Positions 15,483 to 62,741 of a stretch of DNA of 64,000 nt are shown one piece after another. How positions within the stretch are numbered: position 1 is the first letter of the stretch; every line of letters starts with the position of its first letter. The notes below the pieces were generated by a model. It saw only the letters and a list, made by a program, of their open reading frames with translations. It ran no database searches and was not told the DNA's origin. A program made the position numbers and the translations under genes. Origin of the DNA: an uncultured Chloroflexia bacterium (GTDB lineage: Bacteria > Chloroflexota > Limnocylindria > QHBO01); assembly GCA_963770875.1 (NCBI GenBank), contig CAVYRE010000001.1, positions 148,064-212,063 of the forward strand. The letters are read 5' to 3'.

Positions 15483-15650
15483 CCGTTTACGCTCAGCGCA
15501 AGTAACGGACAAGAACGAGGCTTCTACCGGTGGTTGGAACCGCCATCCGGACCGTAGCCGTGCTCCCGCCAGGGTCGACCTGGCTCAGATCGACCCGGAT
15601 CCGGCCTGACGAGGGTCGAAGTTGGCCGTTATGTACGCTGGGCGCAAACG
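15483..15650. repeat. REP/BIME-like composite palindromic element, locus 2
   Basis: TTTACGCTCAGCGCAAGTAACGGACAAG ... ~100 bp ... TTGGCCGTTATGTACGCTGGGCGCAAACG. Confidence 0.7.
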
Positions 15651-15672
15651 ACGTGCAGCGGCGCTCCAGCTC

Positions 15673-16047
15673 CTAGCCGAAGAACGCCGCGATCGCCGCC
15701 GTGTCGTCGGAGAATGCCCAGCGCTCGACGATCTTGCCGTCGCGCATGTGGTAGATCTCGGCGACGCGATAGGTGAACGGCTTCCCGGCGCGCGTGGCGG
15801 TGGCGGTCAGCAGCGCCACGGTGTGGTCGTCGCCACCAACCACGTCGTGCGTATCGCCGGTGATGGTGAAGTCGGACGGGGTGCTGAAGCGGGCGGCGAG
15901 CGCCGCCTTGCCGCGGACCGGTTCGGGATTGCCGATCTCGTGCCAGACGACGTCATCGTCGAGGGCGGCGGCGAACCCACCCATGTCGTTCTTCCCGAGG
16001 GCCTCGAACATGTTGCGAACGACGGTGGCGTTGGGGTGGTCGGACAT
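15673..16047 (-). CDS. SnoaL-like/NTF2-fold protein
   Basis: 124 aa MSDHPNATVVRNMFEALGKND...VVWHEIGNPEP..; start by codon arithmetic, track ORF N-extension is junk. Confidence 0.7.
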   Translation of the reverse strand: MSDHPNATVVRNMFEALGKNDMGGFAAALDDDVVWHEIGNPEPVRGKAALAARFSTPSDFTITGDTHDVVGGDDHTVALLTATATRAGKPFTYRVAEIYHMRDGKIVERWAFSDDTAAIAAFFG

Positions 16048-16354
16048 CGGTCTATCTCCTATCCGGAAGCGGGGGGTTGAGGCCGCAAGTATCGATCCGC
16101 CAGCCCCCCAGCGAAAGGGCCGACCGCCATCGCTCGGGGAGGTCGCTAGCCCTCGTCCGGCTCGTGCGACCCCTCGCTGGGCGGGCGCCCCGCGTATGCG
16201 GCGCCAGCGATCACGACCCCGAGCCCGATCGCGGCGATCGGCCCGACCCACTCCATCGGCACCTGGCCCAGGTTGCCGGAGAGCAGCAGCAACCCAACGC
16301 TCAGCACCAGCAGCCCGCAGACGAAGGAGAGCAGATCGACCGGATGGCGTGCCA

Positions 16355-18825: not shown

Positions 18826-19476
18826 AGGCCGCAGCTCCACCGGGGGTCCGTGTCTTCGTGGTCGACGACCACGAGCTGTTCCGTTCCGGCGTGCGCTCCG
18901 AGCTGAGCGCCAGCTGCGAGATCGTGGGGGATGCTGGGACGGTCGAGGAGGCGGTCGCTGGCATCGTGCAAGGCCACGCCGGACGTGGTGCTGCTCGACG
19001 TCCACATGCCCGGCGGCGGGGGGCGAGCCGTGATCGACGGGGTGCGGGCCGCCGGCGGCACGACGCAGTTCCTGGCGCTCTCCGTCTCGGACGCCGCCGA
19101 GGACGTGATCGGCCTGATTCGCGCTGGAGCGCGGGGCTACGTCACCAAGTCCATCTCCGCCGACGAGCTGGCAGCGGCGGTCCAGCGGGTCCACGGCGGC
19201 GACGTCGTCTTCTCGCCCCGCCTGGCGGGATTCGTGCTCGACGCCTTCGCCGGGGAGGCGCCCTTCCCGACCGACCCGGAGCTCGACCTGCTCACCGCCC
19301 GCGAGCGCGAGACGCTGCGCTACATCGCGCGCGGCTACACCTACAAGGAGGTCGCCGGCGAGCTGTCGATCTCGGTCAAGACGGTGGAGAGCCACGTCTC
19401 CGCGGTGCTGCGCAAGCTCCAGCTGTCGAACCGATACGAGCTGACCCGCTGGGCATCGGAGCGCCAGCTGATCTAG
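18822..19476 (+). CDS. LuxR/NarL-family response regulator (LiaR-like), apparent +1 frame disruption near 18965
   Basis: ATGA overlap with kinase; receiver N-term VRVFVVDDHELFRSGV... switches frame inside ...EAVAGIVQ|ARPDVVLLDVHMPGGGG (extra G in caaGGccacg); C-terminal LuxR HTH ERETLRYIARGYTYKEVAGELSISVKTVESHVSAVLRKL. Confidence 0.7.
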
Positions 19477-19504: not shown

Positions 19505-19668
19505 TTTGCGCCCAGCGCACGTAACCGCCAAGCAGGGGCCGATTGGCTGTCTCGCGCCGTCTCGCCGTGGCTCGAATCGCGCGGATTCGTGCTCAGACCT
19601 GCGGTCGCGACGCCGCGGAGGTCGTGCACGGCCGCTAACTTGGCCGTTACTTGCGCTGGGCGTAAATG
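19505..19668. repeat. REP/BIME-like composite palindromic element, locus 3
   Basis: TTTGCGCCCAGCGCACGTAACCGCCAAGCAG ... ~100 bp ... CTTGGCCGTTACTTGCGCTGGGCGTAAATGG, between convergent genes. Confidence 0.7.
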
Positions 19669-23800: not shown

Positions 23801-23995
23801 CTACCGCGGGTGGCCGAGGTGCCAGCCGTCGCAGTAGCGGCAGTGGTAGGGACGCAGCGTGCCGTCCTGCGAGCGGCCATGCCGCGCCGAGCTGCGCGCC
23901 TCGCGGCGGCTGACGAAGACGCTCTTCGAGGTGCAGCCGCGGTCAGGCAGCGGCAGGTCGCGGTTGATCAGGTCGTGGTAGGCATCCAGGCTCAT
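23801..23995 (-). CDS. small Cys-rich protein, C-terminus HCRYCDGWHLGH (paralog 1)
   Basis: 64 aa; about 70% identical to 39280..39468; four Cys in zinc-ribbon-like spacing. Confidence 0.55.
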   Translation of the reverse strand: MSLDAYHDLINRDLPLPDRGCTSKSVFVSRREARSSARHGRSQDGTLRPYHCRYCDGWHLGHPR

Positions 23996-24091
23996 GCCGC
24001 AATTCTCGCGGCGCCGTGTGACAGCAGCGTGTCGCGGACGTTAAGGAGCCGATAACTGCGGCCCGGAGAGCGCAACGCCCCAGATCGCAGC

Positions 24092-24257
24092 CATTTGCGC
24101 TGAGCGTAAATAGCGGACAAGGAGCGGCTCCCAGGACGCCGGATTGGCCCAGTTCGAGGCCTTCGTTGGCTGCGGGCGTGCGCTGGGCGCAAATCTCAGC
24201 CAACGAGCGCCCACTTCGCGACCTTGCTTGGCCGTTACTTGCGCCCAGCGTAAGCGG
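24092..24257. repeat. REP/BIME-like composite palindromic element, locus 4 (three units)
   Basis: TTTGCGCTGAGCGTAAATAGCGGACAAG / TTGGCTGCGGGCGTGCGCTGGGCGCAAATCTCAGCCAACGAG / CTTGGCCGTTACTTGCGCCCAGCGTAAGCGG with unique linkers. Confidence 0.75.
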
Positions 24258-26745: not shown

Positions 26746-26903
26746 GGATTTGCGCTGAGCGTACATAACGGCCAAGCAGCCGCTCTTCACCGCCCGTTCC
26801 GAGGCCCTTGTTGGCTGCCGTATGCGCTGGGCGCAAATCTCAGCCAAGCAGAGCCAGTCCGGCGACCGTTCTTGGCCGTTATTTGCGCTGGGCGTAAGCG
26901 GGA
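26746..26903. repeat. REP/BIME-like composite palindromic element, locus 5 (three units)
   Basis: GGATTTGCGCTGAGCGTACATAACGGCCAAGCAG / TTGGCTGCCGTATGCGCTGGGCGCAAATCTCAGCCAAGCAG / CTTGGCCGTTATTTGCGCTGGGCGTAAGCGG. Confidence 0.75.
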
Positions 26904-29996: not shown

Positions 29997-30155
29997 ATTT
30001 GCGCTCAGCGTCAATAACCGCCAAGCAGTGATGCGGGATGGGCTATTTCGGGTCCGTCGTTGGCCGTGACTTGCGCTGAGCGCACGTATCAGCCAAGCAG
30101 AGCCCGATTTGCCGCGCTTCTTGGCCGTTATTGACGCTGAGCGCAAACGAGCGGA
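29997..30155. repeat. REP/BIME-like composite palindromic element, locus 6 (three units)
   Basis: GGATTTGCGCTCAGCGTCAATAACCGCCAAGCAG / TTGGCCGTGACTTGCGCTGAGCGCACGTATCAGCCAAGCAG / CTTGGCCGTTATTGACGCTGAGCGCAAACG. Confidence 0.75.
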
Positions 30156-31559: not shown

Positions 31560-31623
31560 CCCGACGTCGGCGAGAGTGTGCTAGCCTGTGCGCACATATC
31601 TGCACACTTCAGGAGACGGCCCG

Positions 31624-31866
31624 ATGGCCCTGGCCCGCACGAACCTGACCCTCCCCCAGGACCTCATGGCGGAGGTCGACGCCCTGGCCGGACCGCGCGG
31701 CCGAAGCCGATACGTGGCGGAGGCGGTCGCAGCCCGCGTGAAGCGCGACAAGCTCGGCAAGGCGATCCGCGAGACCGCCGGAATCCTCGTCGGGACGCCG
31801 TACCAGATGACGCGCGACGAGGTCACCGCCTGGGTCGACTTCCTGCGCTCCGAGGAGACCGATTGA
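31624..31866 (+). CDS. vapB: ribbon-helix-helix antitoxin (VapB-like)
   Basis: MALARTNLTLPQDLMAEVDALAG; AGGAGA 8 nt upstream; precedes PIN gene by 1 nt. Confidence 0.7.
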   Translation: MALARTNLTLPQDLMAEVDALAGPRGRSRYVAEAVAARVKRDKLGKAIRETAGILVGTPYQMTRDEVTAWVDFLRSEETD

Positions 31867-31867
31867 G

Positions 31868-32248
31868 ATGCGGTACCTCCTCGATTCCACGCTGCTGATC
31901 GACCACGCGAACCGCGACGAGCCCGCCGCCGAGTTGCTCGAGCGGCTCCACTCCGGGCCGCACGAGCTCTACACCTGCGACGTTGTCACCTGCGAGACGC
32001 TGTCTCAGGGCGACCCGGACCATCTGCGTCACCTACGGGTGCTGCTCGACGCCCTCGAATACGTCGCCACATCCCCAACGGCTGCCCGCTGGGCGGCGGC
32101 ATCGCGCCTGAAGCGACGCCGGGCTGGGGGCAAGTTCGGCCTGGGGGACTCGCTGATCGCCGGCGTGGCCGCCGAGCTCGGCGCCACGGTGGTTACCCGC
32201 AACCGCCCCGACTTCGAGCGGCAGGGGATCGAGGTCCTCAGCTACTAG
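31868..32248 (+). CDS. vapC: PIN-domain toxin VapC
   Basis: MRYLLDSTLLIDHANRDEP...GDSLIAGVAAELGATVVTRNRPDF. Confidence 0.8.
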   Translation: MRYLLDSTLLIDHANRDEPAAELLERLHSGPHELYTCDVVTCETLSQGDPDHLRHLRVLLDALEYVATSPTAARWAAASRLKRRRAGGKFGLGDSLIAGVAAELGATVVTRNRPDFERQGIEVLSY

Positions 32249-39279: not shown

Positions 39280-39468
39280 TCAGTGGCCGAGGTGCCACCA
39301 GTCGCAGTAGCGACAGCGATACGGATGGAGCGAGCCGTCCTGGTGCCGGCCGTGGCGGGCCTCGCTCTTCGCCTCGCGGCGGGTGATGTAGAGCGCCTTC
39401 GAGGTGCAGCCGCGGTCGACCAGTGGCAGGTTCCGGTTGATGAGCTGTCGGTAGGGGATGACGGTCAT
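39280..39468 (-). CDS. small Cys-rich protein, C-terminus YRCRYCDWWHLGH (paralog 2)
   Basis: 62 aa; ~70% identical to 23801..23995; upstream region shares TTATCGG-YCCTTA and GACAG-N4-CTGTCG motifs with paralog 1. Confidence 0.55.
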   Translation of the reverse strand: MTVIPYRQLINRNLPLVDRGCTSKALYITRREAKSEARHGRHQDGSLHPYRCRYCDWWHLGH

Positions 39469-39558
39469 GCAGGGATCGTGGATGGCGACCGCGACAGCTC
39501 TCTGTCGCAGTCGTCGCTAGGTAAGGGACCGATAAGCGCCGATCCCCACCCTGTGCCG

Positions 39559-40057: not shown

Positions 40058-40219
40058 TTTACGCCCAGCGTCAGTAACAGCCAAGAAGGCATCGGCGTCG
40101 TCGCGTTTTGGGCCGCAACTTGGCCGCCAGTTACGCCCAGCGTAAGCGGGCGACAAGAAGGGCACCTTCGCGGCGCGAACTTGGCCGTTAGTGACGCTGG
40201 GCGCAAATCTGCGCTCGAA
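40058..40219. repeat. REP/BIME-like composite palindromic element, locus 7 (three units)
   Basis: CATTTACGCCCAGCGTCAGTAACAGCCAAGAAG / CTTGGCCGCCAGTTACGCCCAGCGTAAGCGGGCGACAAGAAG / CTTGGCCGTTAGTGACGCTGGGCGCAAATCTGCGCTCG. Confidence 0.75.
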
Positions 40220-40732: not shown

Positions 40733-42685
40733 TCAAGAATCCCCACGAGAATGAGCCCAACTGCCCCGACAACGCCCAACCAGCTCCGTCCCAGCGGAAG
40801 TTCGTAGGACGACCGTGATACTCGCGACGAGGATCAGCGGAGTAATTGCCCAATAGACTGCGGCGCCAATCCAACCAGCCCAACGGCGGGCGCGGCCGTC
40901 AATCTCGAGGTCATGGCGCCTAAGCGCTTCAATCGCGTTCGTAGCGGCAGCCTCGGCACTTGCGGTCTTCAGGTCGGCCTCTGCGCGAAGCGCATTGATG
41001 CGCACTTCATAGCTTGCGCCTAGCTCGTCGAGCTCAAAGTCCGCGCGTGCCTTGTAATCGGCGATGACTCGGTCGACGACCTCATCAAGCGTGCCCGCGT
41101 CCACGTCTTCCGGGTCGTCGTCGGGTTCTGCGGTGCGAAGGATCCTGTCCGAGACACTGGAGACGATAATTGCTGTCACCTGGTCGGGTGACAATCGATC
41201 TGCCTTGCGTAATTCATCAAGGTGCGCGAGGAATCGCCTCCACATCCTCGCCGAGGGTCGCATGGCCGCGGAGCAGAGAGCCACCAGCTGGCGGATTTGG
41301 TACTCGGAGCTCGCCACTGGCCTCTTCAGCCATGCAAGGTTGGCGAGTGCTCGAATGTGGACAATTGGGGGGACGCCCCCCTCCTTCTCGTCCTCCTCCC
41401 ACCAAACCGTTGTGTTCGTAATGACAAGGGGCGACGCGGTGGCAAAGACTACCCTCGCATCTTCAATTCGATAGGAACGGTGGCCCGCACGGAGGGTGAG
41501 CACTCCTGCAACAGAATCGACATCGTGTTCGACCCGAGGCTCCGCGATGTCATGTGTTCGTGGATCAGCTAATCGGCTTGCGAGCTTGGCTTCATCTTGT
41601 GTGTATCGAGCGACGTGTTGTGGCGCACGCCTGATGGTTAACCCCGCGGATTGAATCTCGCCTTCAAGCAACGCAGACATTTCCTGAACGTCGCTTGGCG
41701 CGTACCGTTGCGTCAGGAAATGTCGAGCCATTGACGAAGGACGAAGACTTTGTCGGCCGACCGAGGTGGCCAACTTGTCCTGGTACATCCGCAGAATCCG
41801 TTGGATCTCCTGCACGGTCTTATCGAACACCATGCAACGGATGCCGCTCGCCGCAAGGAGATCAATCGTGTCGCGCATCATCAGCCGCGGCGCAGTTCCT
41901 TCATACCCAAGCGCCTGACGCACTAGAACGGAGTCAAATACGACCGTCAGATCGACAAATCGGCGTGAGACCTCGTTGATGTCTGGCAGGAATGCGGCGT
42001 GGTAGAGGACGAGACCTTCGAGTAATCCCTGCAAGACTCCCTTGAGGCCGCGGTCCTGCTCAACCGTCTCCTCGAGGAACTGCGCAACCAGTAACGACTC
42101 GGATTTGCTGAGACCGGGCACCTCATGCTCCTCGGTCACGCCAAGAATGAGCGAAACCTGATGCTCCTCGAGGAAACGGAAAATAAGGTCGAGGGCACTC
42201 TTGGCTGTGTGCTCTAGCGTCGCGTGCTTGCGAACGTGCTCCGCAAGGGCGGCTCCTAGGCGAAGCTGCCCTGCCTCGACTGCCGCCTTGGTTTCCGAGA
42301 CATCCGGGGCCGAGAGGTCCTTGCCCGGACTGACCCTGAACCTCCCCGCATCTCTCTCTAGAATCCCGCGCCGAGCGGCGCGTTTCAGAAGGGTGCTGAC
42401 AGTCTCTTGTGGCATCGCAATGCCGTGACGGGCGGCGACCCCCTCCTGGATATCCGCGACCGTGAAATATCGACTTGGTTCGACCGACACCGCATCGAGG
42501 ACCAACGGCGAGAACATGCCAAGCTGGTCCTCCCCCTCGTCCAATCGCGCCTTAAGGAATGCCACAGTTACGAGTCCGCCGGCGCCCACGCTTGGTTTCC
42601 TCTCGGTCATCGGCCGAGCCTCACCGGTGAGGTCATTCCGTTGCTCCCGGTGAGCTTCGCTCGTTATCCGGTCATCCTCATTCAT
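40733..42685 (-). CDS. large (650 aa) uncharacterized protein with C-terminal hydrophobic helix; partner of Mrr-like nuclease
   Basis: Start MNEDDR overlaps upstream stop (GATGAATGA); lower GC/codon bias; wH-like stretch FTVADIQEGVAARHGIAMPQETVSTLLKRAARRGIL; no P-loop; C-term WAGWIGAAVYWAITPLILVASITVVL. Confidence 0.7.
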   Translation of the reverse strand: MNEDDRITSEAHREQRNDLTGEARPMTERKPSVGAGGLVTVAFLKARLDEGEDQLGMFSPLVLDAVSVEPSRYFTVADIQEGVAARHGIAMPQETVSTLLKRAARRGILERDAGRFRVSPGKDLSAPDVSETKAAVEAGQLRLGAALAEHVRKHATLEHTAKSALDLIFRFLEEHQVSLILGVTEEHEVPGLSKSESLLVAQFLEETVEQDRGLKGVLQGLLEGLVLYHAAFLPDINEVSRRFVDLTVVFDSVLVRQALGYEGTAPRLMMRDTIDLLAASGIRCMVFDKTVQEIQRILRMYQDKLATSVGRQSLRPSSMARHFLTQRYAPSDVQEMSALLEGEIQSAGLTIRRAPQHVARYTQDEAKLASRLADPRTHDIAEPRVEHDVDSVAGVLTLRAGHRSYRIEDARVVFATASPLVITNTTVWWEEDEKEGGVPPIVHIRALANLAWLKRPVASSEYQIRQLVALCSAAMRPSARMWRRFLAHLDELRKADRLSPDQVTAIIVSSVSDRILRTAEPDDDPEDVDAGTLDEVVDRVIADYKARADFELDELGASYEVRINALRAEADLKTASAEAAATNAIEALRRHDLEIDGRARRWAGWIGAAVYWAITPLILVASITVVLRTSAGTELVGRCRGSWAHSRGDS

Positions 42686-43547
42686 CGACAAGGATGTCCG
42701 CTGGTTCACGAGCACTCACGCGCCGCTCGTACGTTGCATCAATCGCATTGAGAAGGTCGAGGACACTGACCCCAGCCTCGATGGCCAGGCGAGCCATGAT
42801 TTCTCCAACTTGTCGCCCGGCTACCAGAAGGATGGGGTACCCATCGTCCTGAAGCTCTCGTTGGGCTTGAAGGGAGAAGTGACCAGTCGTAACGAAAACG
42901 CCCACCCAGCCTCGATCCAGCTTCGCCGCGAGCCTCGATAATTCGGCGACACCGCTCGCCCCCGCCTGGCATTTCGCCTGCCCGGCTACGACGATTCGCA
43001 GCGGAACTGAGCTACTCCCCAGGTCAAGTCTTCCTACAAAATCGATGCCGCGGTCGCCTGAACCTCGGCTTACCCAGCCCAACCGATACAGACCGGCATG
43101 CTCGAATGAGGCCTGCGCGACCCGCTCTGCGACCGCCTCAAACCGGCTCTTTGGCCGGTTGGCATAGAAGGCGATTGTCGTTCGGAGCGCTCCCTCGGCC
43201 GTCGACCCGGCAAGCGGCCGCTGATCGCTCTCAGACAAAATCCTGTAGCTGAGGAGGCGTTGGCGAACCTGGGCCAGCGACGCTGTGCCGCGGTCAATCC
43301 ACTGCCTCCAGGATTTGGGCGCTAGCACTAGGGTCTCGGTCAGCGTTCTTGTGGAGTCTCGGCGAGCTGCGACCCACGTCCAATCGAGCAGATTGTTCTC
43401 AGAGGCGAGGCTGAGAAGTGCGCAGTCGTATCGGTAGTTGACAAACGGTCGGCCGTGCCGGTCCACTTGCACCACGCGCTCGACGCGGTCCACTAAGCCA
43501 ACTCCTCGGAAGCGGCGGTAGCCCTTAGCGCGATTCTCTTGAATCAC
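42678..43547 (-). CDS. Mrr-type PD-(D/E)xK restriction endonuclease-domain protein with unassigned N-terminal region
   Basis: C-terminal half ...GDRGIDFVGRL...RIVVAGQAKCQ...GVFVTTGHFSLQAQRE matches Mrr_cat D/(D/E)xK layout; GTG start; upstream frames open. Confidence 0.7.
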   Translation of the reverse strand: MIQENRAKGYRRFRGVGLVDRVERVVQVDRHGRPFVNYRYDCALLSLASENNLLDWTWVAARRDSTRTLTETLVLAPKSWRQWIDRGTASLAQVRQRLLSYRILSESDQRPLAGSTAEGALRTTIAFYANRPKSRFEAVAERVAQASFEHAGLYRLGWVSRGSGDRGIDFVGRLDLGSSSVPLRIVVAGQAKCQAGASGVAELSRLAAKLDRGWVGVFVTTGHFSLQAQRELQDDGYPILLVAGRQVGEIMARLAIEAGVSVLDLLNAIDATYERRVSAREPADILVDE

Positions 43548-46014: not shown

Positions 46015-46169
46015 GGCGTGGACGGCCGACCCAGCCGTGGCTGCTGTCGGAGCCTGGTCGTGCAGGTGTGCTGCACGAACGCACGAGTGCACGATGAGCC
46101 TTGACGGCGCGAGCCTCCCCTGAATTCGGCTAAGCCGCCGATAAGCGGTCGTCGCTACGGTGCGGCGGC

Positions 46170-46442
46170 ATGGAGTTCGAGTGGGATCCACGGAAGGCGG
46201 AGCAGAACGTCCGGAAGCACGGGGTCGCCTTTGAGGATGCCATCACCATCTTCGCGGACCCCGACGAACTCATGATCTATGACCCGGACCATTCCTTGAC
46301 CGAAGATCGGTTCGTGAGCGTCGGCAGGTCCAGGTCTGGCCGGCTGTTGGTGGTGGGCTACACCGAGCGCGGGAGTAAGATCCGAATCATCTTCGCGAGG
46401 CGGGCAACAGCACCCGAGATGCTTGACTATGAAGAAGTCTGA
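46170..46442 (+). CDS. brnT: BrnT-family ribonuclease toxin
   Basis: MEFEWDPRKAEQNVRKHGVAFEDAITIFADPDELMIYDPDHS...RIIFARRA. Confidence 0.8.
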   Translation: MEFEWDPRKAEQNVRKHGVAFEDAITIFADPDELMIYDPDHSLTEDRFVSVGRSRSGRLLVVGYTERGSKIRIIFARRATAPEMLDYEEV

Positions 46443-46620
46443 TAGCGAGACGCGGGAGGAGTACGACTTCCGCACCGGAACCCGAGGCCACCATCATCGC
46501 AAGGTGGCTGGGGAGGGCCGGTTGGTCCGCCTCGACCCTGATGTGGCGGTGCGGTTTCCGACGTCTGAAGCAGTGAACGAGGCCCTGCGGTCCCTGCCTC
46601 GTCGCCGACCCCAGGACTGA
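46423..46620 (+). CDS. brnA: BrnA-family antitoxin
   Basis: Small protein overlapping brnT 3' end, EEYDFRTG... typical BrnA context. Confidence 0.65.
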   Translation: MTMKKSDSETREEYDFRTGTRGHHHRKVAGEGRLVRLDPDVAVRFPTSEAVNEALRSLPRRRPQD

Positions 46621-46698
46621 ACGCCGACCTCGGCGGTCAATGGGACGGCCAGCCCCCTCTCCCTGACAGGATTACGGCAAATCGGGAATACTGCGCCA

Positions 46699-46974
46699 AT
46701 GGCCAATCCCCGAACGGTTCAGATCCGGGGTCGCGGCACCGTGACCCTGCCGGCCAGGATCCGCGAGCGATACGACCTCGCCGACGGTGACCCGCTGACG
46801 CTGGTCGACCTCGATGGCGCCATTCTGCTCTCGCCCAAGACGAGCGTCGTCGACAAGCTGTCGGCGGAGATCGAGTACCTGATGAAGGGATCGGGCCTGA
46901 GCCTCGACGAGCTGCTCGGTGGGCTGCGCGAAGAGCGCGCGCGGTACCACGCCGACCGCCTTGAGCGCCGATAG
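46699..46974 (+). CDS. AbrB/MazE/SpoVT-family antitoxin
   Basis: VQIRGRGTVTLPARIRERYDLADGDPLTL swapped-hairpin motif. Confidence 0.7.
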   Translation: MANPRTVQIRGRGTVTLPARIRERYDLADGDPLTLVDLDGAILLSPKTSVVDKLSAEIEYLMKGSGLSLDELLGGLREERARYHADRLERR

Positions 46975-53400: not shown

Positions 53401-53866
53401 TCCCGCGGCCCGGACGCGCGTTCGACGTCGACCAGCACCTCGCCGGACTCGATCCCGATCCGCATCCCGAGCGTCGGCTTACCCTCGGCGGCGAAGCCGC
53501 GGTTCAGCTCGGAGAGGATCGCCTGCATCTCGAGGGCTGCGCGTACGGCGCGCTCGGCGTCGTCCTCGTGCGCACGAGGGACGCCGAAGACGGCCAGGAT
53601 GCGTCGCCCATGAACTTCTCGAGCAGTCCCTCGTGGCGCCCGATCTCCTCTGCCATCCGGTCGAAGGTGCGGCCGATGACCGACTGCACGACCTCCGGAT
53701 CCTCGCGCTCAGCGAGGGCCGTGGAGCCAACGAGATCGGCGAACAGCGCCGTGGCGAACTTGCGCTCCTTGCGCGTGGTGTGCGCCGCGGTGAGCGTCGT
53801 GCCGCAGGCGTTGCAGAAGCGGGCGCCTTCCGGATTCTCCTGGCCGCACGAGGGGCACGTGAGCAT
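50445..53866 (-). CDS. zinc-ribbon + class III nucleotidyl cyclase + STAND/AAA ATPase + TPR regulator (about 1140 aa), one frame disruption near 53587
   Basis: MLTCPSCGQENPEGARFCNACG; cyclase FADLVGSTAL...KFMGDA|ILAVFGVPRAHEDDAERAVRAALEMQAI (one base missing); P-loop VIGPAGVGKSRL; long TPR-like C-terminus. Confidence 0.75.
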
Positions 53867-53997
53867 GTGCGAACCCTACGCCACGCGGCCTCGCCGCAAC
53901 AGGGCGCTCGAGTCGGTGGCGCCCGGCCTCGACCTGCGCCTCGCAGCGCTTGGCGGAGCCGATTGGACTCCCGGCCGATGTGCTACCGTTGTGCGTC

Positions 53998-54303
53998 ATG
54001 AGCCCTCAGAAGCGCAGGCCGGATCGAGTTGGGGTTCGCGAGCTGCGCCAGAACCTGTCCGTCTACCTCAAGCATGTGCGCGAGGAGGGGCGCGCCTACG
54101 AGGTGACGGAACGGGGCGAGCCGGTGGCCCACCTGACGCCCCTGCCGGATCGGCCCACCTCGACCTACGAGCGGATGCTCGCGGAGGGCAGGATCACGCT
54201 CGCCACGCGGCGCTGGGAGGAGATGCCCGAGCCGTTGCCGCCCGTGCACGGCAAGCAGGTCTCCGAGGTGCTGCGCGAGATGCGCGACGAGGAGGAGTGG
54301 TGA
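53998..54303 (+). CDS. Phd/YefM-family antitoxin
   Basis: RVGVRELRQNLSVYLKHVREEGRAYEVTERGEPVAHLTPL. Confidence 0.75.
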   Translation: MSPQKRRPDRVGVRELRQNLSVYLKHVREEGRAYEVTERGEPVAHLTPLPDRPTSTYERMLAEGRITLATRRWEEMPEPLPPVHGKQVSEVLREMRDEEEW

Positions 54304-56205: not shown

Positions 56206-57471
56206 TCACCAGTTCGAGCTGGTGGCCGGCCAGGCACTGTAGGCCCAGTCGATGATGCTTGGCGCTTCCGTGCCGCTCATCACGTTGTAGACCATCGGCT
56301 TCAGCTGGCTCCCGTCCGCGCACCCGGTGTTGAGGCTCTCGGCCATGAGCCACAGCTGACTGTTGTTCAGGAAGACCGGGTAGTTGTGAGCGCCGGAGCC
56401 GATCCGTTTCGGGCTCCCGCCGTGCGCGAGGTCAACGAGGTAGACGTCGTGGAGGTAGTTCGGGATGTCGACCGCGTAGGCGAGGAAGCGTCCATCGGGT
56501 GAGATGGTGGGGTAGTACCAGGTGACGCCGGTGAGGAACCGCTGCGCGGTTGCGCCGCTCGTCCATTTCCAGATGTCCGTGCCCTGGCGGTAGTAGAGCG
56601 CATCGCCGGTTGGAGACCAGACCGCCATCGCCGGCCAGTTCGGCTCCGTCCAGTCACCTGCCGGCGGGAGCACCGAGAAGACCACGGTGCCGCCGTCCAC
56701 CACGAGGAGGCTGGCCTGGGTCTGAAGCGGCTGGTTCAGGACGTAGAGCCGGTTGCCCGATGGGGTGAACTCGCCATATCTCGAGTCGTCGGGCGAGCTG
56801 CATCGGCCCTCGTTCGTGTCGAGCAGGGTGGCGACGACACGGTCGCCGGCTGCGGTGGTGATGTGGATCATGTCGCTGCGGCTGCCCTGCGGGTCCACCG
56901 ACCGCCACACGATCTGGTCGAGCGCCGGAGAGACGGTGATCAGCTCCGAACCCCAGCCCGGAGTGAGCGGCAGCTGGAACCAGTGGAAGCGCACCTCCGG
57001 CAGGTCGACCACCGCGCCGGCCCTGCCGGCGTTGATCAGGGCGTGCCGGCTATCGATGAGCTGCATCGGCGAGGCGCCCAGGTTGCAGACCGTCGTGGGA
57101 TGCGCCACGTCTGCGTAGTCGCGCAGCACGAAGTCGCCTGGCTTCTCCGGCGTCCCATGCAGCTGGACGACCGCGACCGGGTCCTGCGCACCGATCGGCC
57201 CCGTACAGGTCACGGCGTTGAGACCCGTACCCGGCGGCTCGCTGCCTGGCAGGACCGGGAACGAGTCGCTTCTCGGGCCAGGGATGCCGGTGGGGAGCGC
57301 GGTTGGCGAGGGGACCTGCGGGGAAGTGCTCGCCGCGACGCTGCTCGACGCAGGGATCGAGGGGGAAGTGGTCTGTTGCAGCGCGGCGCGGCACCCGCCG
57401 ACCGCCAACACCAGCGTCATGCCTGCAACCACCCCGGCGAATCGCTGGGTTGTCCCTCCCCGGTCAACCAC
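56206..57471 (-). CDS. lipoprotein with beta-propeller (TolB/WD40-like) region
   Basis: Lipobox LAVGGC; Pro/Ser-rich linker; repeated propeller-like blades (YYRQG, WSPTGD, ISPDGRFLAYAV). Confidence 0.6.
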   Translation of the reverse strand: MVDRGGTTQRFAGVVAGMTLVLAVGGCRAALQQTTSPSIPASSSVAASTSPQVPSPTALPTGIPGPRSDSFPVLPGSEPPGTGLNAVTCTGPIGAQDPVAVVQLHGTPEKPGDFVLRDYADVAHPTTVCNLGASPMQLIDSRHALINAGRAGAVVDLPEVRFHWFQLPLTPGWGSELITVSPALDQIVWRSVDPQGSRSDMIHITTAAGDRVVATLLDTNEGRCSSPDDSRYGEFTPSGNRLYVLNQPLQTQASLLVVDGGTVVFSVLPPAGDWTEPNWPAMAVWSPTGDALYYRQGTDIWKWTSGATAQRFLTGVTWYYPTISPDGRFLAYAVDIPNYLHDVYLVDLAHGGSPKRIGSGAHNYPVFLNNSQLWLMAESLNTGCADGSQLKPMVYNVMSGTEAPSIIDWAYSAWPATSSNW

Positions 57472-57544
57472 GCCGGCAGCCTACTCCTGGGTTTCAGCGA
57501 TGAACAGAGGCACGCGAGCGCTGGCGCCCACCTGCGCGCTCGCG

Positions 57545-57672
57545 TGGTCATGGGATGGTTACAACGGGGAAGATGAGTCGCCCTGATCGTCGGGGGAGTC
57601 ACGGGGTGACTATTCGGCGGTCAAGGGCCGTCGATCCGGCCCTTCTTCGCCGTTGTGGTCACCAGGTGGCTG
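57545..57672. repeat. MITE-like element with ~20-bp terminal inverted repeats (family B, copy 1)
   Basis: GTGGTCATGGGATGGTTACAACGGGGAAG ... CTTCGCCGTTGTGGTCACCAGGTGG; homologous in inverse orientation to 61885-62018. Confidence 0.6.
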
Positions 57673-57815
57673 CGGCGCAGCCCCGAACCCATTGGCTCGG
57701 TCCCTCTGGCCCGCTTCAACCGGGCGTGGACCATGAGCGCCGCCAGAAGCTCGTGGAACGGGCCTCTACGCGGACGCGGATTGACACCCGGATCCGGACC
57801 CATCATGCTGTGCGC

Positions 57816-58076
57816 ATGACGACCAAGGAGAAGCGGACCTACAACCTGACCGCGGCGACGGTGCGTGCCGTCCGCGAGCTGGCGGACGAGTACCACGCCG
57901 CTCCCACCCAGGACGCGGTGGTGGAGCTGGCCGTCTCGGAGCTGGCTCGCCGGCTGCGGGACGAGGCGGAGTCGGCGGCCTGGGAGAAGGCGGCTGCGGA
58001 CGCAGCGTTCCGCGCTGAGGCGCAGGAGATCGAGGACGCCTACCACGGCGCCGATCGCGAGACGTGGCCGGCCTGA
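57816..58076 (+). CDS. ribbon-helix-helix antitoxin
   Basis: MTTKEKRTYNLTAATVRAVRELADEYH...; track ORF N-extension lies inside the MITE-like repeat and is not coding. Confidence 0.6.
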   Translation: MTTKEKRTYNLTAATVRAVRELADEYHAAPTQDAVVELAVSELARRLRDEAESAAWEKAAADAAFRAEAQEIEDAYHGADRETWPA

Positions 58077-58453
58077 GCATCGGGCCCTTGCGCTGGGGGG
58101 TCGTGGTGGTGGCGCTCGACCCGGTCAAGGGCCACGAGCAGGCGGGGACCCGCCGCGCGCTGGTGGTCTCGTACGAGCCGTTCCATCGGTCCGGGCTGAT
58201 GACGGTCTGCCCGATCACCGCTGCCCGATCCGAGGCGCGCTATCCCGGCGACGTGCCGCTGCCTGCCGGCCTGGCCGGCCAGACGAAGGCGGGGGTGATC
58301 GTCTGCAGCCAGGTCCGCACCATCTCCGCGCATCGGCTGCGCGGCGCGCCGGTGGGATTCCTGACCGATGCCTCCCTGCGTCGTCGCGTGCGCCAGGCGC
58401 TTGCTCATCACCTGGGCCTGGACGTCCCCGCGGTCGTGGACGCCACGGCGTAG
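58064..58453 (+). CDS. MazF/PemK-family toxin
   Basis: VVALDPVKGHEQAGTRRALVVSYEPFHRSGLMTVCPITAA...SQVRTISAHRL. Confidence 0.7.
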   Translation: MAGLSIGPLRWGVVVVALDPVKGHEQAGTRRALVVSYEPFHRSGLMTVCPITAARSEARYPGDVPLPAGLAGQTKAGVIVCSQVRTISAHRLRGAPVGFLTDASLRRRVRQALAHHLGLDVPAVVDATA

Positions 58454-58645
58454 GAGCTGCCTGAAGCGCCGCTGCCGGGCGTCGCTCGCCGTTGCCCGTG
58501 AGGTCACGTTCATTTAGGGATGCTAGGGGGTAGTTTTGTGCGGTTAGGTGTGGTAGAAGAACTGCCTCACGTCGGCGTCAGAAAGCGGGGCAGCGTTCGC
58601 GCGAACCCGAGGTTCGGGTTCGCAGCATTGCGAGGGACGTATCGA

Positions 58646-59128
58646 ATGACACCGAGATCACTTCACAGCGCCGTGCTGGAGGTGGGCCTCTACTACGAGA
58701 AGCGCTGGACGGTCGACGAGATCGCCCGATTCACCTTTCGACTGAAGCGTCGCCGGCTCCGCGCCGAGAAGCGGGAAGCTCGAGCGCGCCGGGCTGCGAG
58801 GCCGATCCCGCTCCGCGTCGCCTACCAGATCGGGCCAGGTGGAAGCCGACCCGAGGCCCAGGTTCCGGTCATGACACAGGCCGATGCGCGGAAGGCCAAC
58901 CAGCGGCTGCTCGAGCGCGTCCGGGCCCAGCTCAGCCGGCGACTGATGCGCGCCGCGGAGAAGGAGCGCATCGACCTGCCATGCCTCGTGTGCGGGAGGC
59001 CCGCCACCGGCTGGACCTACCTGAGCCGTCATCACAACAACGTGCTCGCCACCGACGCATACGCCACCTGCGGCGCACACCGCTCGGAGGAGTCCGTGAA
59101 GCAGCTCGCGGGGACCGGCGCGCGATAG
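58646..59128 (+). CDS. hypothetical protein with C-terminal Cys/His cluster
   Basis: ORF preceded by AT-richer stretch; ...LPCLVCGRPATGW...ATCGAH. Confidence 0.35.
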   Translation: MTPRSLHSAVLEVGLYYEKRWTVDEIARFTFRLKRRRLRAEKREARARRAARPIPLRVAYQIGPGGSRPEAQVPVMTQADARKANQRLLERVRAQLSRRLMRAAEKERIDLPCLVCGRPATGWTYLSRHHNNVLATDAYATCGAHRSEESVKQLAGTGAR

Positions 59129-59161
59129 GACCTGCCGAGAGGCGTGCCCAGCTGCACCACC

Positions 59162-60082
59162 TCAGCGGGCAGAGCTGCCCTCGGCCCAGCGCAGCACGCG
59201 CATGGCGCGCAGCGTGTTCCATCGGCTCGGCCCGTCCTCGGCCTCCATCTCGAAGTGCACAGCTCCGGGGTAGGTGAGCTCGAGCAGCCAGCGCCCGTCC
59301 GCTTCACGCTTTCCCCGCAGCAGCTCGATCGCCTCCGTCACCCGCTCGTCCGGGGTGACGTCCGCGGCGCGGAGGTAGTCGAGCCCGCGGAGCACGTCGT
59401 AGTGCCAGCGGCCCGGGAACGCGAATCGTAGCCAGACGCCGGTGTTCGGCTCGATCACCTCGCCGGTGGAGAGCCGGCGGAAGAGGCGGCGGTCGAGGAT
59501 GTACTCCTGTCCGCGGAGGCGCGCGGCGGTCACGGCCGGGTCGGGTCCAACGGCCCGCTCGTACTCCAACAGCCCTTCCAGCACGTTGATGCTCGAGTCG
59601 AAGGAGCCGCGCACGGAGCCGCGCTCCTGCTCGCAGTTCCACCCGCCGTCGGCCATCTGGTCGTTGAGGAGGCGGTCGACGATGCCCTTCACGTCCTGTC
59701 CGAAGTAGGCGCCGATGGCCACGGCCTGGCCATTGATGCATGGCTCCACCTCGCCGTCGAAGAAGCGGAGGTTGTCGTACTCCCAGCGGGCGTTCTCGGC
59801 GACGAGCGCGACCGCGCGGCGGGCCTGGTCGCTCGCCGGGTCGAGGCCCATGCAGCGCAGGAGCGCCAGGGTGTTCGTGGTGGAGGTCCACTCCGGGAAG
59901 TAGGTGCCGCCGCCCCACTGGCCGTCCGCCGCCTGGAGCGCGAGGAGCTGCGCGCCCCACCCTTCCGTGGCGACCTTGGCGCGCTCCGCCGCGACGACCT
60001 CGGCCGGCTCGTCGGTCAGGTCGCGCATCACCTGCCAGCGGATCGAGGGGTCGGCGTCGAGCAGCCACTCGAGAACGGTCAT
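59162..60082 (-). CDS. hypothetical protein (alpha-helical repeat, possibly alpha/alpha-toroid fold)
   Basis: 306-aa ORF with W/D/G-rich repeats reminiscent of terpenoid-cyclase/prenyltransferase-like toroids. Confidence 0.5.
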   Translation of the reverse strand: MTVLEWLLDADPSIRWQVMRDLTDEPAEVVAAERAKVATEGWGAQLLALQAADGQWGGGTYFPEWTSTTNTLALLRCMGLDPASDQARRAVALVAENARWEYDNLRFFDGEVEPCINGQAVAIGAYFGQDVKGIVDRLLNDQMADGGWNCEQERGSVRGSFDSSINVLEGLLEYERAVGPDPAVTAARLRGQEYILDRRLFRRLSTGEVIEPNTGVWLRFAFPGRWHYDVLRGLDYLRAADVTPDERVTEAIELLRGKREADGRWLLELTYPGAVHFEMEAEDGPSRWNTLRAMRVLRWAEGSSAR

Positions 60083-60165
60083 CGGCTCACTCCGGTGGGG
60101 GTTGGGGAGTGTCTCATCGTAGGGGCGCCCGTTTGGAGGTCCTCGGGGCCTGGCGCCGGATGTTA

Positions 60166-60203
60166 CTTGGCCGTTACGCGCGCTGAGCGCAAATCTGCGG
60201 CCG
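60166..60203. repeat. solo REP-like palindromic unit (family A)
   Basis: CTTGGCCGTTACGCGCGCTGAGCGCAAATCTGCGGCC. Confidence 0.6.
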
Positions 60204-60206
60204 CCT

Positions 60207-60647
60207 CTAGCCGCCGGGTCCGAAGGTGGCGATCAGGCCGCGGATGAAGGCGTCCTTATCGGCCTGGGAGAGGTTGGCGTTGGGGTGCATGATCAGGTAG
60301 ACGAAGGGCGGCATGCTGCCCTGGCGGACCGCCTCGGCCCCCTCGCTCTCTCCGTGGCCGCGGGAGCCCCAGGTCGACCAGTTGAGGGTGGCGCGGCCCT
60401 CGTCGACGTCGTGCTGGATCAGCCACGAGAAGGGGGCGATGTTCGAGTACCACGGCCAGACGGTCTGGTTGCTGTGGCAGTCGAAGCAGGCGGTCACGGC
60501 GTACGCGCGGGTCGCGGGCGAGTCCCACTTCGGCTCCCCGGTGACCGCCGGGTTGGTGTGGTCGCGCCCGTACGGAACGAGCTGGATAACGCCGAAGCCA
60601 ATGATGCCGGTGAGGCCGATGAGGAGGATGAGCCGCCGGAGGCTCAA
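60207..60647 (-). CDS. heme-binding domain (CxxCH) membrane-anchored protein
   Basis: TTG start after GAGGT; N-terminal TM LILLIGLTGIIGFGV; CFDCHSN motif. Confidence 0.55.
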   Translation of the reverse strand: MSLRRLILLIGLTGIIGFGVIQLVPYGRDHTNPAVTGEPKWDSPATRAYAVTACFDCHSNQTVWPWYSNIAPFSWLIQHDVDEGRATLNWSTWGSRGHGESEGAEAVRQGSMPPFVYLIMHPNANLSQADKDAFIRGLIATFGPGG

Positions 60648-61108
60648 CGTGGTACCTCGGTCAGGAAGACCGGCACCACGCCCTCGACGGAGCGCCGCAG
60701 GTCCGCCTCGGACCGGATGCGCTTGCCGAGCCCCAGGTAGACGGCCCTGACGTAGAGCGGCCGATCGCGGAAGACCTCCACCGACAGGTCGCCGGCATCC
60801 ACGCCGCCGACCTTCGCGCGCGCCACGTACCGCCTCCCGCGGTTCCAGGCCCGGCAGGTGGGATGCGCCAGCAGGTTCATCAGCCACCGCGCCTGGTAGC
60901 CGTCGCCGGCCAGCACCCACAGCCCGTCGGCATCGCGCCGCGCGACGTCGAGCACCACGCGGCGCGGCTTGCCGGTGCGACGCCCGGTCGTCTCGATCAT
61001 CACCAGCCATGGCACCAGCCGGCTCAGGTGCAGGGCGAAGGCAAGCTCCGGGGCGCGCATGAACCAGCGCGGCAGGCGCTGGGTCGGCCGGAGGGCGGCG
61101 GTTGTCAT
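60644..61108 (-). CDS. deazaflavin-dependent nitroreductase family protein (DUF385/PNPOx-like)
   Basis: MTTAALRPTQRLPRWFMRAPELAFALHLSRLVPW...TTGRRTGKPRRVVLDVA; upstream 300 codons of track ORF are junk. Confidence 0.7.
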   Translation of the reverse strand: MTTAALRPTQRLPRWFMRAPELAFALHLSRLVPWLVMIETTGRRTGKPRRVVLDVARRDADGLWVLAGDGYQARWLMNLLAHPTCRAWNRGRRYVARAKVGGVDAGDLSVEVFRDRPLYVRAVYLGLGKRIRSEADLRRSVEGVVPVFLTEVPR

Positions 61109-61758
61109 GGGCCGATTGGCTCGACCGGCTGGCGGATCAGCGTCTTGAGCCGATCCGGCGCGGTGCGGTTCGGGTCGCCGATGTAGATCTCGTGGTGGCA
61201 GCCGCGCGCTTGCAGCCCGGCCAGGCCGATGGCGGCGTGGAGCCGCGCGATCGTCGGCGACTCCGCGTCGTACGGGCCGACATGGAGGATCTGCGCCACC
61301 TCGCCCTCGATCCATTCCTCGGCGCGCAGCTGGTCGAGGAGCGGGGGACGCTTCTTGTGGAATACCTCGTCGATGGCCGAGGCGATGTCGGCTTCGGTCG
61401 CCTCCTCGGGGAGCGGCAGCATGAGGCGCCAGCTCCACGAGCCGCGCTGCTGGTCGCTGACGGCGAACTGGGCCGGGGTGATGGGCGTCGCCTCGTCGAT
61501 CCAGTAGAGGCCCTCGAGCGCCCCCACCGGCGCCTGGATGCCGCGCCGCTTCAACGCGAAGTGGAGGGTGTAGGCGACCGGGTAGAGGGTCCCGATCGCG
61601 TCGCGGAAGCCCGGCGCGCCGGGCTCGTCGGTCCCGTCGATCATCAGGTAGCGGCGGAGGGGGATCTCCAGCCAGCGGACACGGTCCGCATGCGCCGTGA
61701 TCTCGTCGCGGTAGTCGGAAACGCGCTCGAATTCGACACGGTGGGCAGTGAGGACCAT
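61105..61758 (-). CDS. GyrI-like small-molecule-binding domain protein
   Basis: 217 aa; duplicated GyrI-like halves. Confidence 0.65.
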   Translation of the reverse strand: MVLTAHRVEFERVSDYRDEITAHADRVRWLEIPLRRYLMIDGTDEPGAPGFRDAIGTLYPVAYTLHFALKRRGIQAPVGALEGLYWIDEATPITPAQFAVSDQQRGSWSWRLMLPLPEEATEADIASAIDEVFHKKRPPLLDQLRAEEWIEGEVAQILHVGPYDAESPTIARLHAAIGLAGLQARGCHHEIYIGDPNRTAPDRLKTLIRQPVEPIGP

Positions 61759-61884
61759 GGCCGACCTCCTCGGGAAGCTGTTCGCGTGAGCGTCGCGCCG
61801 CGAGGGTGGGCGGTCCAGTGCCGGTTGGCCCTTGGGTAGAGGGGGCCATTGGTCGCGTAGTGCGCGCAGGCCCGTTCCATGGCG

Positions 61885-62018
61885 CGACAGTCACGGGGTG
61901 GCTACAACGGGGAAGGAGCGGCGTCTTGTTCCCCTCCGGCGCCACGTGGTGACGATTCAGCCACCGAGCGGGGGGTATCGGGGCATTCTTCCCCGTTGTG
62001 GTCATCTGGTGACCACGA
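61885..62018. repeat. MITE-like element with terminal inverted repeats (family B, copy 2)
   Basis: CACGGGGTGGCTACAACGGGGAAGG ... CATTCTTCCCCGTTGTGGTCATCTGGTGACC. Confidence 0.6.
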
Positions 62019-62066: not shown

Positions 62067-62741
62067 CTACCCAGGGATCAGGAGCCGTCCTGCCTCCGCG
62101 ATGCGGCGCATCCAGGGAAGCTCGCGATCCAGGGTCGTCTCGGGGCCGTGGCCCGGGAGCACGCGCACGGCCGCAGGCAGCTCGGACGCGAGGCGGGTGA
62201 GCGACGCGACCATCTCCGCGTCCGACCCACCGGGAAGGTCGGTGCGGCCGTACGAGCCGGCGAAGAGCACGTCCCCGGAGAGGAGCAGCGCCTCGCGCTC
62301 CTCGTAGAGGCAGACGGACCCCTCGGTGTGGCCGGGGAGGTGCAGCACGTCCCACACCAGGTCGCCGATGCGCAGCTGCTCCCCCTCGTGCAGGTCGACC
62401 GTCGCCACCGCCCGCTCGACCTCGAAGCCGTAGTTGTTCGGTGCACTGAGCCGATACGCATCGTCGGGGTGGATGGCGAGCGGCGCGCCGGAAGCTCGCA
62501 TCAACGGCCCGTTGTCGAAGATGTGGTCGATGTGGCCGTGCGAGTCGGCGATCAGGTGCAGCCGCAGCCCGTTGGCCGCGATCCGCTCCATCAGCGACGG
62601 GGCGGCGCCCATCCCCGGGTCGAGCACCAGGGCATCGGGCGAGCGGCCGTCCCAGACGAGGTACGCGTTGGTCTGCCACGGGCCGAAGGCGCCGACCTCG
62701 AGGTGCGGATGCGAGGCGTCGGTCCGCGCGACCTCGGTCAC
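62067..62741 (-). CDS. MBL-fold metallo-hydrolase (hydroxyacylglutathione hydrolase-like)
   Basis: HLIADSHGHIDH motif. Confidence 0.8.
   Translation of the reverse strand: MTEVARTDASHPHLEVGAFGPWQTNAYLVWDGRSPDALVLDPGMGAAPSLMERIAANGLRLHLIADSHGHIDHIFDNGPLMRASGAPLAIHPDDAYRLSAPNNYGFEVERAVATVDLHEGEQLRIGDLVWDVLHLPGHTEGSVCLYEEREALLLSGDVLFAGSYGRTDLPGGSDAEMVASLTRLASELPAAVRVLPGHGPETTLDRELPWMRRIAEAGRLLIPG

Follow-up and report, generated by a model that had tools for sequence, protein, structure and literature searches.

What are the two similar non-coding segments that lie 4.2 kb and about seven genes, on both strands, apart in a 64,000-nucleotide stretch of an uncultured Chloroflexota genome (class Limnocylindria, contig CAVYRE010000001.1; the whole stretch is called the window here), and what brought them there? 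An earlier note had taken them for a miniature inverted-repeat transposable element (MITE), present twice in opposite orientation and unrelated to another MITE-like family of the same window. The answer that we favor, with middling confidence, is that they are co-oriented, non-autonomous elements, each a triplet of repetitive extragenic palindromic (REP) sequences resembling REPINs, possibly served by a helix-turn-helix (HTH) nuclease instead of a REP-associated tyrosine transposase (RAYT). REPINs are REP doublets that form hairpins and occur with RAYT transposases (Bertels and Rainey 2011; PMC3116915, PMC3337134).

A covariance model built from six copies of the element (R1) recovered both homologous segments near the places where they had been reported, each as a 132-nucleotide (nt) match with an E value of about 5e-29. 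We refer to this element as family 1. The window has four occurrences of the 12-mer ACAACGGGGAAG or its complement, compared with 0.13 expected from shuffles. The ends of each copy form inverted arms of 26 to 31 nt with 81% complementarity and about 72 nt between them, which confirms the terminal inverted repeats described earlier. The two copies have the same orientation, contrary to the earlier description: direct alignment gave 70% ungapped identity over 122 nt and a local alignment score of 66, compared with a score of 32 after reverse-complementing, in a match that spans the 31-nt end only, and R1 scored about 119 bits on the forward strand versus 43 to 50 bits on the reverse strand. The sole reason that the copies match after flipping is that their ends are palindromic over about 30 nt.

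Family 1 elements consist of three 15-nt modules (GGTCAY-NNN-RTGRCY), one at the 5' end, one in the center, and one at the 3' end, together with a complementary pair of arms, ACAACGGGGAAG and CTTCNCCGTTGT. The order is a 5' module GGTCAY-NNN-RTGGYT, the arm ACAACGGGGAAG, the central module, the arm CTTCNCCGTTGT, and a 3' module GGTCAY-NNN-GTGRCY. In "type B" copies, the center is paralogous to the 3' end (CGCCGTTT-GGTCACNNNGTGACCACG). The two ends of the element can pair as a stem of about 30 bp, and pairing along the arm ACAACGG-GAAG is unbroken except for one mismatch or wobble column.

Pattern scans of genomes and metagenomes for further copies retrieved loci (numbered with the prefix L) in which R1 detected 22 distinct family 1 copies, each scoring far better on one strand. 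All are in contigs of Candidatus Limnocylindria, and all are intergenic, as had been stated for the two in the window. The description of a small, non-coding, multicopy element with terminal inverted repeats is supported. True copies from the genome scan came from one Candidatus Limnocylindria metagenome-assembled genome (MAG; L003 to L005) only, and the metagenome scan gave 10 contigs with matching loci, at 67 to 72% G+C. The other three of the six genome scan loci (L001, L002, and L006, from Nitrospirae, Pirellulaceae, and Bacteroidia, at 45 to 56% G+C) were rejected as chance matches without the rest of the element. Scans of viral contigs for the patterns of family 1 and of the sister family described below gave 0 matches. 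Copies on one contig are co-oriented throughout (++ in the window, L007, L008, L012, and L014; -- in L004; +++ in L005), for which the chance expectation is roughly 1 in 32, counting independent cases. Proteins encoded in the window have their best matches in Limnocylindria/Chloroflexota, at up to 91% identity for the metallo-β-lactamase-fold (MBL) protein. The Limnocylindria are an uncultured but abundant, little-studied class of Chloroflexota found in freshwater and soil. A literature search found no prior description of such elements in the library searched.

Comparison of related loci indicates that family 1 is, or was, mobile. On either side of copy 2, the window is collinear with locus L029, which has genes for LipB, the MBL hydrolase (87% amino acid identity), the GyrI-like protein (77%), and an F420H2-dependent reductase, and the spacer between the MBL and GyrI-like genes measures 133 nt without the element in L029 versus 308 nt with copy 2 in the window. 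In L027, the spacer after the MBL gene is occupied by an element of family 2, the sister family, and in L030 by yet another variant, TTGCAC-NNN-GTGCAA. An empty site and different families in one spacer point to insertion and not to a conserved regulatory site. The window and L012 or L016 are homologous from the 5' end of copy 1 onward; the homology fades past the 3' end of the copy and resumes at 57771 to 57801. The occurrence of family 1 at different loci in related genomes, together with its absence from the otherwise collinear site in L029, thus supports the mobile-element part of the earlier interpretation. Copies 1 and 2 do not bound a composite mobile unit, a possibility ruled out by L029, which keeps the GyrI-like and F420 reductase genes beside the MBL gene without copy 2. 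In L027, a palindromic repeat, GTTTGTGCAACTGTGCGGTCGTGCGGCTGTGCTGCACAAAC, lies at 6744 to 6787 and 7073 to 7127, on both sides of the family 2 element in the post-MBL spacer; it represents another repeat family or else a nested insertion.

Family 2 is probably what the earlier note had counted as its first MITE-like element, and the two families are not unrelated. In the window, family 2 has TTTGCGC-NNN-GCGCAAA modules and ATAACGGCCAAG/CTTGGCCGTTAT arms, in the layout TTTGCGCTGAGCGTAC-ATAACGGCCAAG, central TGCGCTGGGCGCAAA, and CTTGGCCGTTAT-TTGCGCTGGGCGTAAG. With six full copies and one solo 3' half, or about 1 per 9 kb, it is commoner there than family 1; three copies are clearly co-oriented, and the orientation of the remainder is ambiguous. 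The three-module-plus-arm architecture is common to both families, their arms are compensated, and R1 cross-matches a family 2 copy with an E value of 2.7e-6. The layout "module + YAACG..AAG, central module, CTT..CGTTR + module" is shared by the two families of the window and by those of L018, L019, L022, L026, L030, and L031. Arm changes between families are complementary (ACAAC/GTTGT versus ATAAC/GTTAT, and further GGGG/CCCC versus GGCC/GGCC, GACGA/TCGTC, and GTGAC/GTCAC), so that arm complementarity is maintained across families.

Nothing encoded in the window resembles a transposase or an integrase. A candidate partner of the elements, and the sole gene specifically tied to them, was found in relatives. 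In the syntenic loci L004, L007, L008, L015 (cut), and L017, a gene for a 218-amino-acid (aa) protein lies between two family 1 copies, which are complete and form direct repeats. The gene order AAA_16/cyclase - HTH - PIG-L is syntenic in L004, L007, L008, L015, L017, and L031. In L031, where the protein at the same locus is 67% identical, an element is again present on both flanks, with the module AGCCRC-NNN-GYGGCT instead. More distant homologues also have elements on both sides, with the modules TTTGCG-N5-CGCAA in L018 (42% identity), GGTCCAC-N3-GTGGACC in L019 (39%), and a non-palindromic module in L022 (46%). Within the 6 to 20 kb examined in each of L017, L018, L019, L022, and L031, the cognate module occurs only beside the HTH-nuclease gene.

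The N terminus of the 218-aa protein is an XRE helix-turn-helix (HTH_31 in Pfam). The C-terminal domain of its AlphaFold2 model (pLDDT of 89.7) has a putative PD-(D/E)xK nuclease fold, identified by fold comparison alone; sequence searches for that domain (PDB by hidden Markov model, Pfam at E ≤ 10, and NCBIfam) matched the HTH only. The core that defines the PD-(D/E)xK superfamily is an alpha-beta-beta-beta-alpha-beta arrangement with an Asp on strand 2 and the (D/E)xK on strand 3. Residues E115, D128, E141, R145, D148, and K159 are conserved, and about 590 clusters at 50% identity match the protein at E ≤ 1e-30. Just upstream of several of the HTH genes is a conserved motif, ..TAAGCCGG..CCGGTAAG.., that is distinct from the element modules; in it, a CCGG core is flanked by two spaced repeats that contain TAAG (ATAAGCCGCCGGTAATGG and GCTAAGCGCCCGGTAAGG, for instance). 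Sites of this motif lie at about 9960 to 9985 in L018, 2950 to 2985 in L026, 2950 to 2985 in L024, 4430 to 4460 in L031, and 15625 to 15650 and 19190 to 19230 in L017. The last locus also contains extra HTH-nuclease paralogues or fragments (15600 to 16295 and 18594 to 19030) within 9 kb of the main copy, with no evident flanking elements; the source annotation either omits them or calls the opposite strand.

A gene that stands between its own co-diverging palindromic elements has the layout of REPIN/RAYT systems, not that of an insertion sequence (IS) and its MITEs. On the favored reading, family 1 is non-autonomous DNA that inserted into intergenic spacers without visible target duplication and then persisted. 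The HTH domain would recognize the 15-bp modules, and the nuclease-fold domain would work in trans on the palindromic or hairpin structure, in the manner of a RAYT with its REPINs; the form on which such mobilization acts would be double-stranded DNA, single-stranded DNA (ssDNA), or RNA. The HTH nuclease is not encoded in the window, so copies 1 and 2 would be passengers there. More tentatively, we propose a RAYT-independent REPIN-like system in Limnocylindria, in which an XRE-HTH/PD-(D/E)xK nuclease recognizes, and either copies or maintains, three-module elements of about 130 to 160 bp. That proposal includes, at the same tentative level, that the nuclease is a domesticated protein whose single-copy gene lies between two copies and whose specificity co-evolves with the module.

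Several observations weigh against these readings. The link between family 1 and the HTH nuclease is circumstantial. The L022 module, not being a palindrome, is unfit for simple binding by an HTH dimer; the element in L026 is upstream of the HTH gene only; and neither L023 nor the L017 paralogue at 15600 to 16295 has clear flanking elements. The TAAG/CCGG motif upstream of the HTH genes could be the real operator or promoter of the protein. Conservation does not extend to the canonical Lys of (D/E)xK (E141 is followed by x-V/I, with R145 and K159 nearby), and the predicted nuclease domain could be catalytically dead. Family 1 also appears to be low in copy number, with 2 copies in the 64-kb window and 6 found in the MAG. 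The spacers have diverged too far for the exact boundaries of the insertion to be placed on the empty site of L029. In an alignment of 20 copies, a long-range stem model pairs 92.7% of cells and folding of the modules on themselves pairs 95.7%, and neither model beats shuffled controls in within-family covariation, which therefore proves nothing. Finally, the GT[AG]G that family 1 ends often carry on each strand is the tag of RAYT-mobilized REPs.

This last point favors the most probable of the alternatives, namely, that family 1 is an ordinary GTAG-type REP dimer or REPIN moved by a RAYT (an IS200-like Y1 HUH transposase) encoded elsewhere, with the HTH nuclease as a favored neighbor or a regulator; we consider it unlikely. 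Read on their own strands, family 1 ends open with C-GT[AG]G, and a short palindrome comes next; of 20 copies, 9 have GTGG at the 5' end and 13 have GTAG or GTGG at the 3' end when that end is taken on the other strand. Chloroflexi are reported to have GTAG-tagged REPs, which often form inverted pairs and fold as larger hairpins (PMC3733652), and REPINs, as two inverted REPs forming a hairpin, are vertically inherited (PMC3337134). The tag, however, varies among copies (GTGG/GCAG in copy 1 and ACAG/GTGG in copy 2) and overlaps the stem instead of being unpaired, its last two bases lying inside it. Family 2 and the families of L018 and L022 have no GTAG tag, yet they share the architecture and the association with the HTH gene, and the bracketed gene is that of the HTH nuclease, with which the modules co-diverge. 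The window and about 300 kb of related loci contain no HUH/Y1 motif or IS200-like protein, a weak argument given that a RAYT occurs once per genome.

It is improbable that the elements are non-mobile clusters of three operator sites for the XRE protein, forming a regulon or organizing the nucleoid and conserved on account of that binding. Palindromes of 15 bp in a 6-N3-6 arrangement are typical XRE dimer operators. The sites do lie on both sides of the regulator's own gene, and the copies at the HTH locus keep orthologous positions across 75 to 93% nucleotide divergence, but conservation extends over the whole 132 nt, and the arms are kept complementary across families. One spacer is empty in one relative and holds different families in others. 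The 64 kb contain about 7 copies of family 2 beside unrelated genes in no fixed relation to them, and family 1 copies are present in the window, where no such regulator is encoded.

A structured RNA transcribed from the forward strand, either a small RNA or a cis-acting hairpin, is a poorer explanation still. Both copies do fold far better on that strand, copy 1 at -71.3 kcal/mol (z of -4.6, versus -2.9 on the reverse strand) and copy 2 at -73.6 kcal/mol (z of -5.1, versus -1.7). This asymmetry arises because 5 to 7 pairs of the outer stem are G·U or G·T wobbles on the forward strand (7 in copy 1 and 5 in copy 2), with no A·C pairs; hairpins of ssDNA tolerate G·T wobbles too, and folding of copy 1 with DNA parameters gave the same strand asymmetry (-30.1 versus -24.8). 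The whole window had no Rfam match at the gathering threshold, scans around both copies matched no consensus promoter or terminator, the flanks of the elements are not conserved, and within-family covariation is no better than in shuffles. Copy 1 runs with the RHH/MazF genes next to it, copy 2 is antisense to both of its neighbors, and at the HTH locus the elements run antisense to the HTH gene; such inconsistent orientation argues against a cis-acting RNA.

The view of the earlier note, that family 1 is a classical MITE, an internally deleted DDE-type IS with terminal inverted repeats and target-site duplications that was moved by its parent IS, now appears very improbable. What stands of it are the terminal inverted repeats of about 30 nt, the small size, the lack of coding capacity, the multiple copies, and the presence/absence polymorphism. 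What does not stand are its two expected hallmarks: inspection by eye of the 25-nt flanks of 20 aligned copies revealed no target-site duplication (0 of 20), and neither the window nor about 300 kb of related loci holds a transposase or IS with matching terminal inverted repeats. MITEs do not feature a third, internal module or an arm that is conserved from family to family, and the associated gene is bracketed by two complete copies rather than contained in one. Least credible of all are attC sites of an integron (a cassette array or a cluster of attC sites lacking integron-integrases [CALIN]) or other recombinase target sites: the hairpins have a conserved inner AAC...GTT, co-orientation on each contig, spacings of 0.85 to 4.3 kb, toxin-antitoxin (TA) and small accessory genes between copies, and a strand-asymmetric fold reminiscent of bottom-strand attC folding, but only AAC/GTT of the would-be R boxes (CTACAAC/GTTGTGG) fits RYYYAAC/GTTRRRY, there is no unpaired central spacer or extrahelical base and conserved pairing runs 18 nt beyond these boxes, the 4.2-kb interval holds genes on both strands and is partly collinear with a relative without copy 2, housekeeping genes (lipB and aceE) are interspersed, and no integrase (tyrosine recombinase) was found in the window.

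Coordinates, in window positions, of the family 1 and family 2 elements, their parts, and the genes and conserved block next to family 1
Feature	Positions	Strand	Details
Family 1 copy 1, 132 nt	57543..57674	+	R1 119.4 bits on +, E 5e-29; 42.6 bits on -
Copy 1 5' module	57546..57560	+	GGTCATGGGATGGTT; regex and sequence
Copy 1 5' arm	57561..57572	+	ACAACGGGGAAG
Copy 1 central module	57597..57611	+	AGTCACGGGGTGACT
Copy 1 3' arm	57645..57656	+	CTTCGCCGTTGT; complements the 5' arm except for one G·G mismatch
Copy 1 3' module	57657..57671	+	GGTCACCAGGTGGCT
Family 1 copy 2, 132 nt	61886..62017	+	R1 119.5 bits on +; 49.7 bits on -
Copy 2 5' module	61889..61903	+	AGTCACGGGGTGGCT
Copy 2 5' arm	61904..61915	+	ACAACGGGGAAG
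Copy 2 central module	61941..61953	+	GCCACGTGGTGAC
Copy 2 3' arm	61988..61999	+	CTTCCCCGTTGT
Copy 2 3' module	62000..62014	+	GGTCATCTGGTGACC
Family 2 copy	15486..15648	not assigned	
Family 2 copy	19505..19666	not assigned	
Family 2 copy	24094..24254	+	
Family 2 copy, best	26749..26900	+	R1 cross-match 29.2 bits, E 2.7e-6, with alignment
Family 2 copy, nearly perfect palindrome	29998..30147	not assigned	
Family 2 copy	40058..40207	not assigned	
Family 2 solo 3' half, between copies 1 and 2	60166..60193	+	CTTGGCCGTTAC-GCGCGCTGAGCGCAAA
PD40-repeat gene, other neighbor of copy 1	56206..57471	-	
Conserved block, outside the element	57771..57801	+	GGATTGACAC..GATCCGGAC; 93.5% identical to L005 6779-6809; conserved in L012
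RHH-type antitoxin gene	57816..58076	+	Start at Met88 of the long open reading frame, by the L012 homologue; no Pfam match
MazF/PemK toxin gene	58064..58453	+	PF02452, E 1.9e-21
GyrI-like gene	61105..61758	-	PF06445; 77% aa identity to the L029 orthologue; copy 2 is 127 nt upstream of the start
MBL-fold hydrolase gene	62067..62741	-	PF00753, E 2.9e-27; copy 2 is 49 nt downstream of the stop

Copy 2 does lie between the GyrI-like and MBL hydrolase genes, as first described. Copy 1 adjoins the RHH/MazF pair, 141 nt before the RHH start, but its placement in the leader of that pair is doubtful, since the conserved block at 57771 to 57801 intervenes. This block is probably the TA promoter/operator, although a consensus promoter scan gave no match, and because it separates copy 1 from the RHH start, copy 1 may lie upstream of the TA promoter rather than inside the transcript. 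The 5' part of the open reading frame (ORF) 57555..58076 is non-coding, as had been proposed: the RHH homologue of L012 starts at the equivalent of Met88 (57816), and there is no protein-level conservation upstream. Elements like family 1 thus create spurious ORF starts, a practical point for annotation.

In the MAG contig L005 (6779 to 7203, compared with 57771 to 58428 in the window), the MazF homologue (84.5% nucleotide identity) comes straight after the conserved upstream block. It lacks the stretch of about 258 nt that codes for the RHH antitoxin in the window, a sign of a mazF without its antitoxin or of a fused ORF. TA genes are plentiful in the 64 kb (31585 to 32245, 46134 to 46971, 53863 to 54300, and 57816 to 58453) and include an RHH+PIN (VapBC-like) pair, BrnT, a MazE/AbrB-type antitoxin, a Phd/YefM antitoxin, and the RHH/MazF pair. 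Directly beside a family 2 element is an island of lower G+C content (40733 to 43547, reverse strand; 57 to 63%, versus 70% for the window) that looks horizontally acquired and encodes a 660-aa protein without a Pfam match and a 289-aa Mrr-type restriction endonuclease (PF04471, RE_AspBHI_N). Two paralogous Cys-rich proteins of about 78 aa (..RGCTSK..Y.CRYCD.WHLGH) are encoded at 23804 to 24040 and at 39283 to 39516 (reverse strand), each about 55 to 540 nt from a family 2 element.

Two copies of a palindromic repeat would by themselves be ordinary; what is added here is an undescribed REP/REPIN-like superfamily tied to an unannotated protein family. If the RAYT-independent reading is true, it would represent a second, mechanistically different bacterial origin of the combination of an enslaved nuclease and a non-autonomous palindromic repeat. 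A functional link would also provide a pairing of a protein with a 15-bp site, with the naturally occurring specificity variants GGTCAC-N3-GTGACC, AGCCGC-N3-GCGGCT, TTTGCG-N5-CGCAA, and GGTCCAC-N3-GTGGACC, and it would add another way for palindromic repeats to be retained by bacterial genomes.

Among known systems, the PD-(D/E)xK nucleases with DNA-binding domains (NucS, Hjc, XisH, and type II restriction enzymes such as BstEII) differ from the HTH nuclease, which has no sequence-level family membership, does not conserve the canonical Lys, carries an N-terminal XRE HTH, and has no methyltransferase neighbor. Family 1 shares with attC sites and Vibrio cholerae repeats the imperfect palindromes of about 60 to 140 nt, the inner AAC/GTT, co-orientation, a better fold on one strand, and frequent proximity to TA cassettes, but it lacks the box consensus, the unpaired spacer, and an integrase and is not in a cassette array. 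Like the bacterial MITEs Correia, ERIC, and Nezha, it is a small, non-coding, intergenic repeat with terminal inverted repeats, insertion polymorphism, and long hairpins; unlike them, it has no target-site duplication or parent IS and has a conserved internal module architecture. Also comparable are the GTAG-tagged REPs and clusters resembling bacterial interspersed mosaic elements, which are short palindromes, often ending in GT[AG]G and paired in opposite orientation, that lie mostly downstream of genes and occur in Chloroflexi (Di Nocera et al. 2013, PMC3733652). In contrast to these, the family 1 tag is variable and partly in the stem, the sister families have no tag, and the unit is a fixed 132-nt composite, not a free REP of 20 to 40 nt.

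The REPIN/RAYT systems are separated from the elements described here by the flanked gene, which encodes an XRE-HTH and PD-(D/E)xK-fold protein and not an IS200-like HUH/Y1 transposase (PF01797), by the three modules and the 12-nt arm conserved across families, and by the seemingly low copy number of family 1 and the direct repetition of the copies that flank the gene. Several features are shared. Family 1 is an extragenic palindrome of about 100 to 130 nt made of short inverted palindromic units that can form a long hairpin, its inverted ends (about 26 to 31 nt, with about 72 nt between them) pairing in 92.7% of cells across 20 copies. The elements are extragenic, multicopy, and divided into several families (family 1, family 2, and those of L018, L019, L022, L026, L030, and L031). 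Like REPIN families, they show no target-site duplication, and each family is tied to its own gene, which exists in single copy, is inherited vertically, has elements on its flanks, and co-diverges with them, a description that the HTH-nuclease gene fits in the change of module between L017 and L031.

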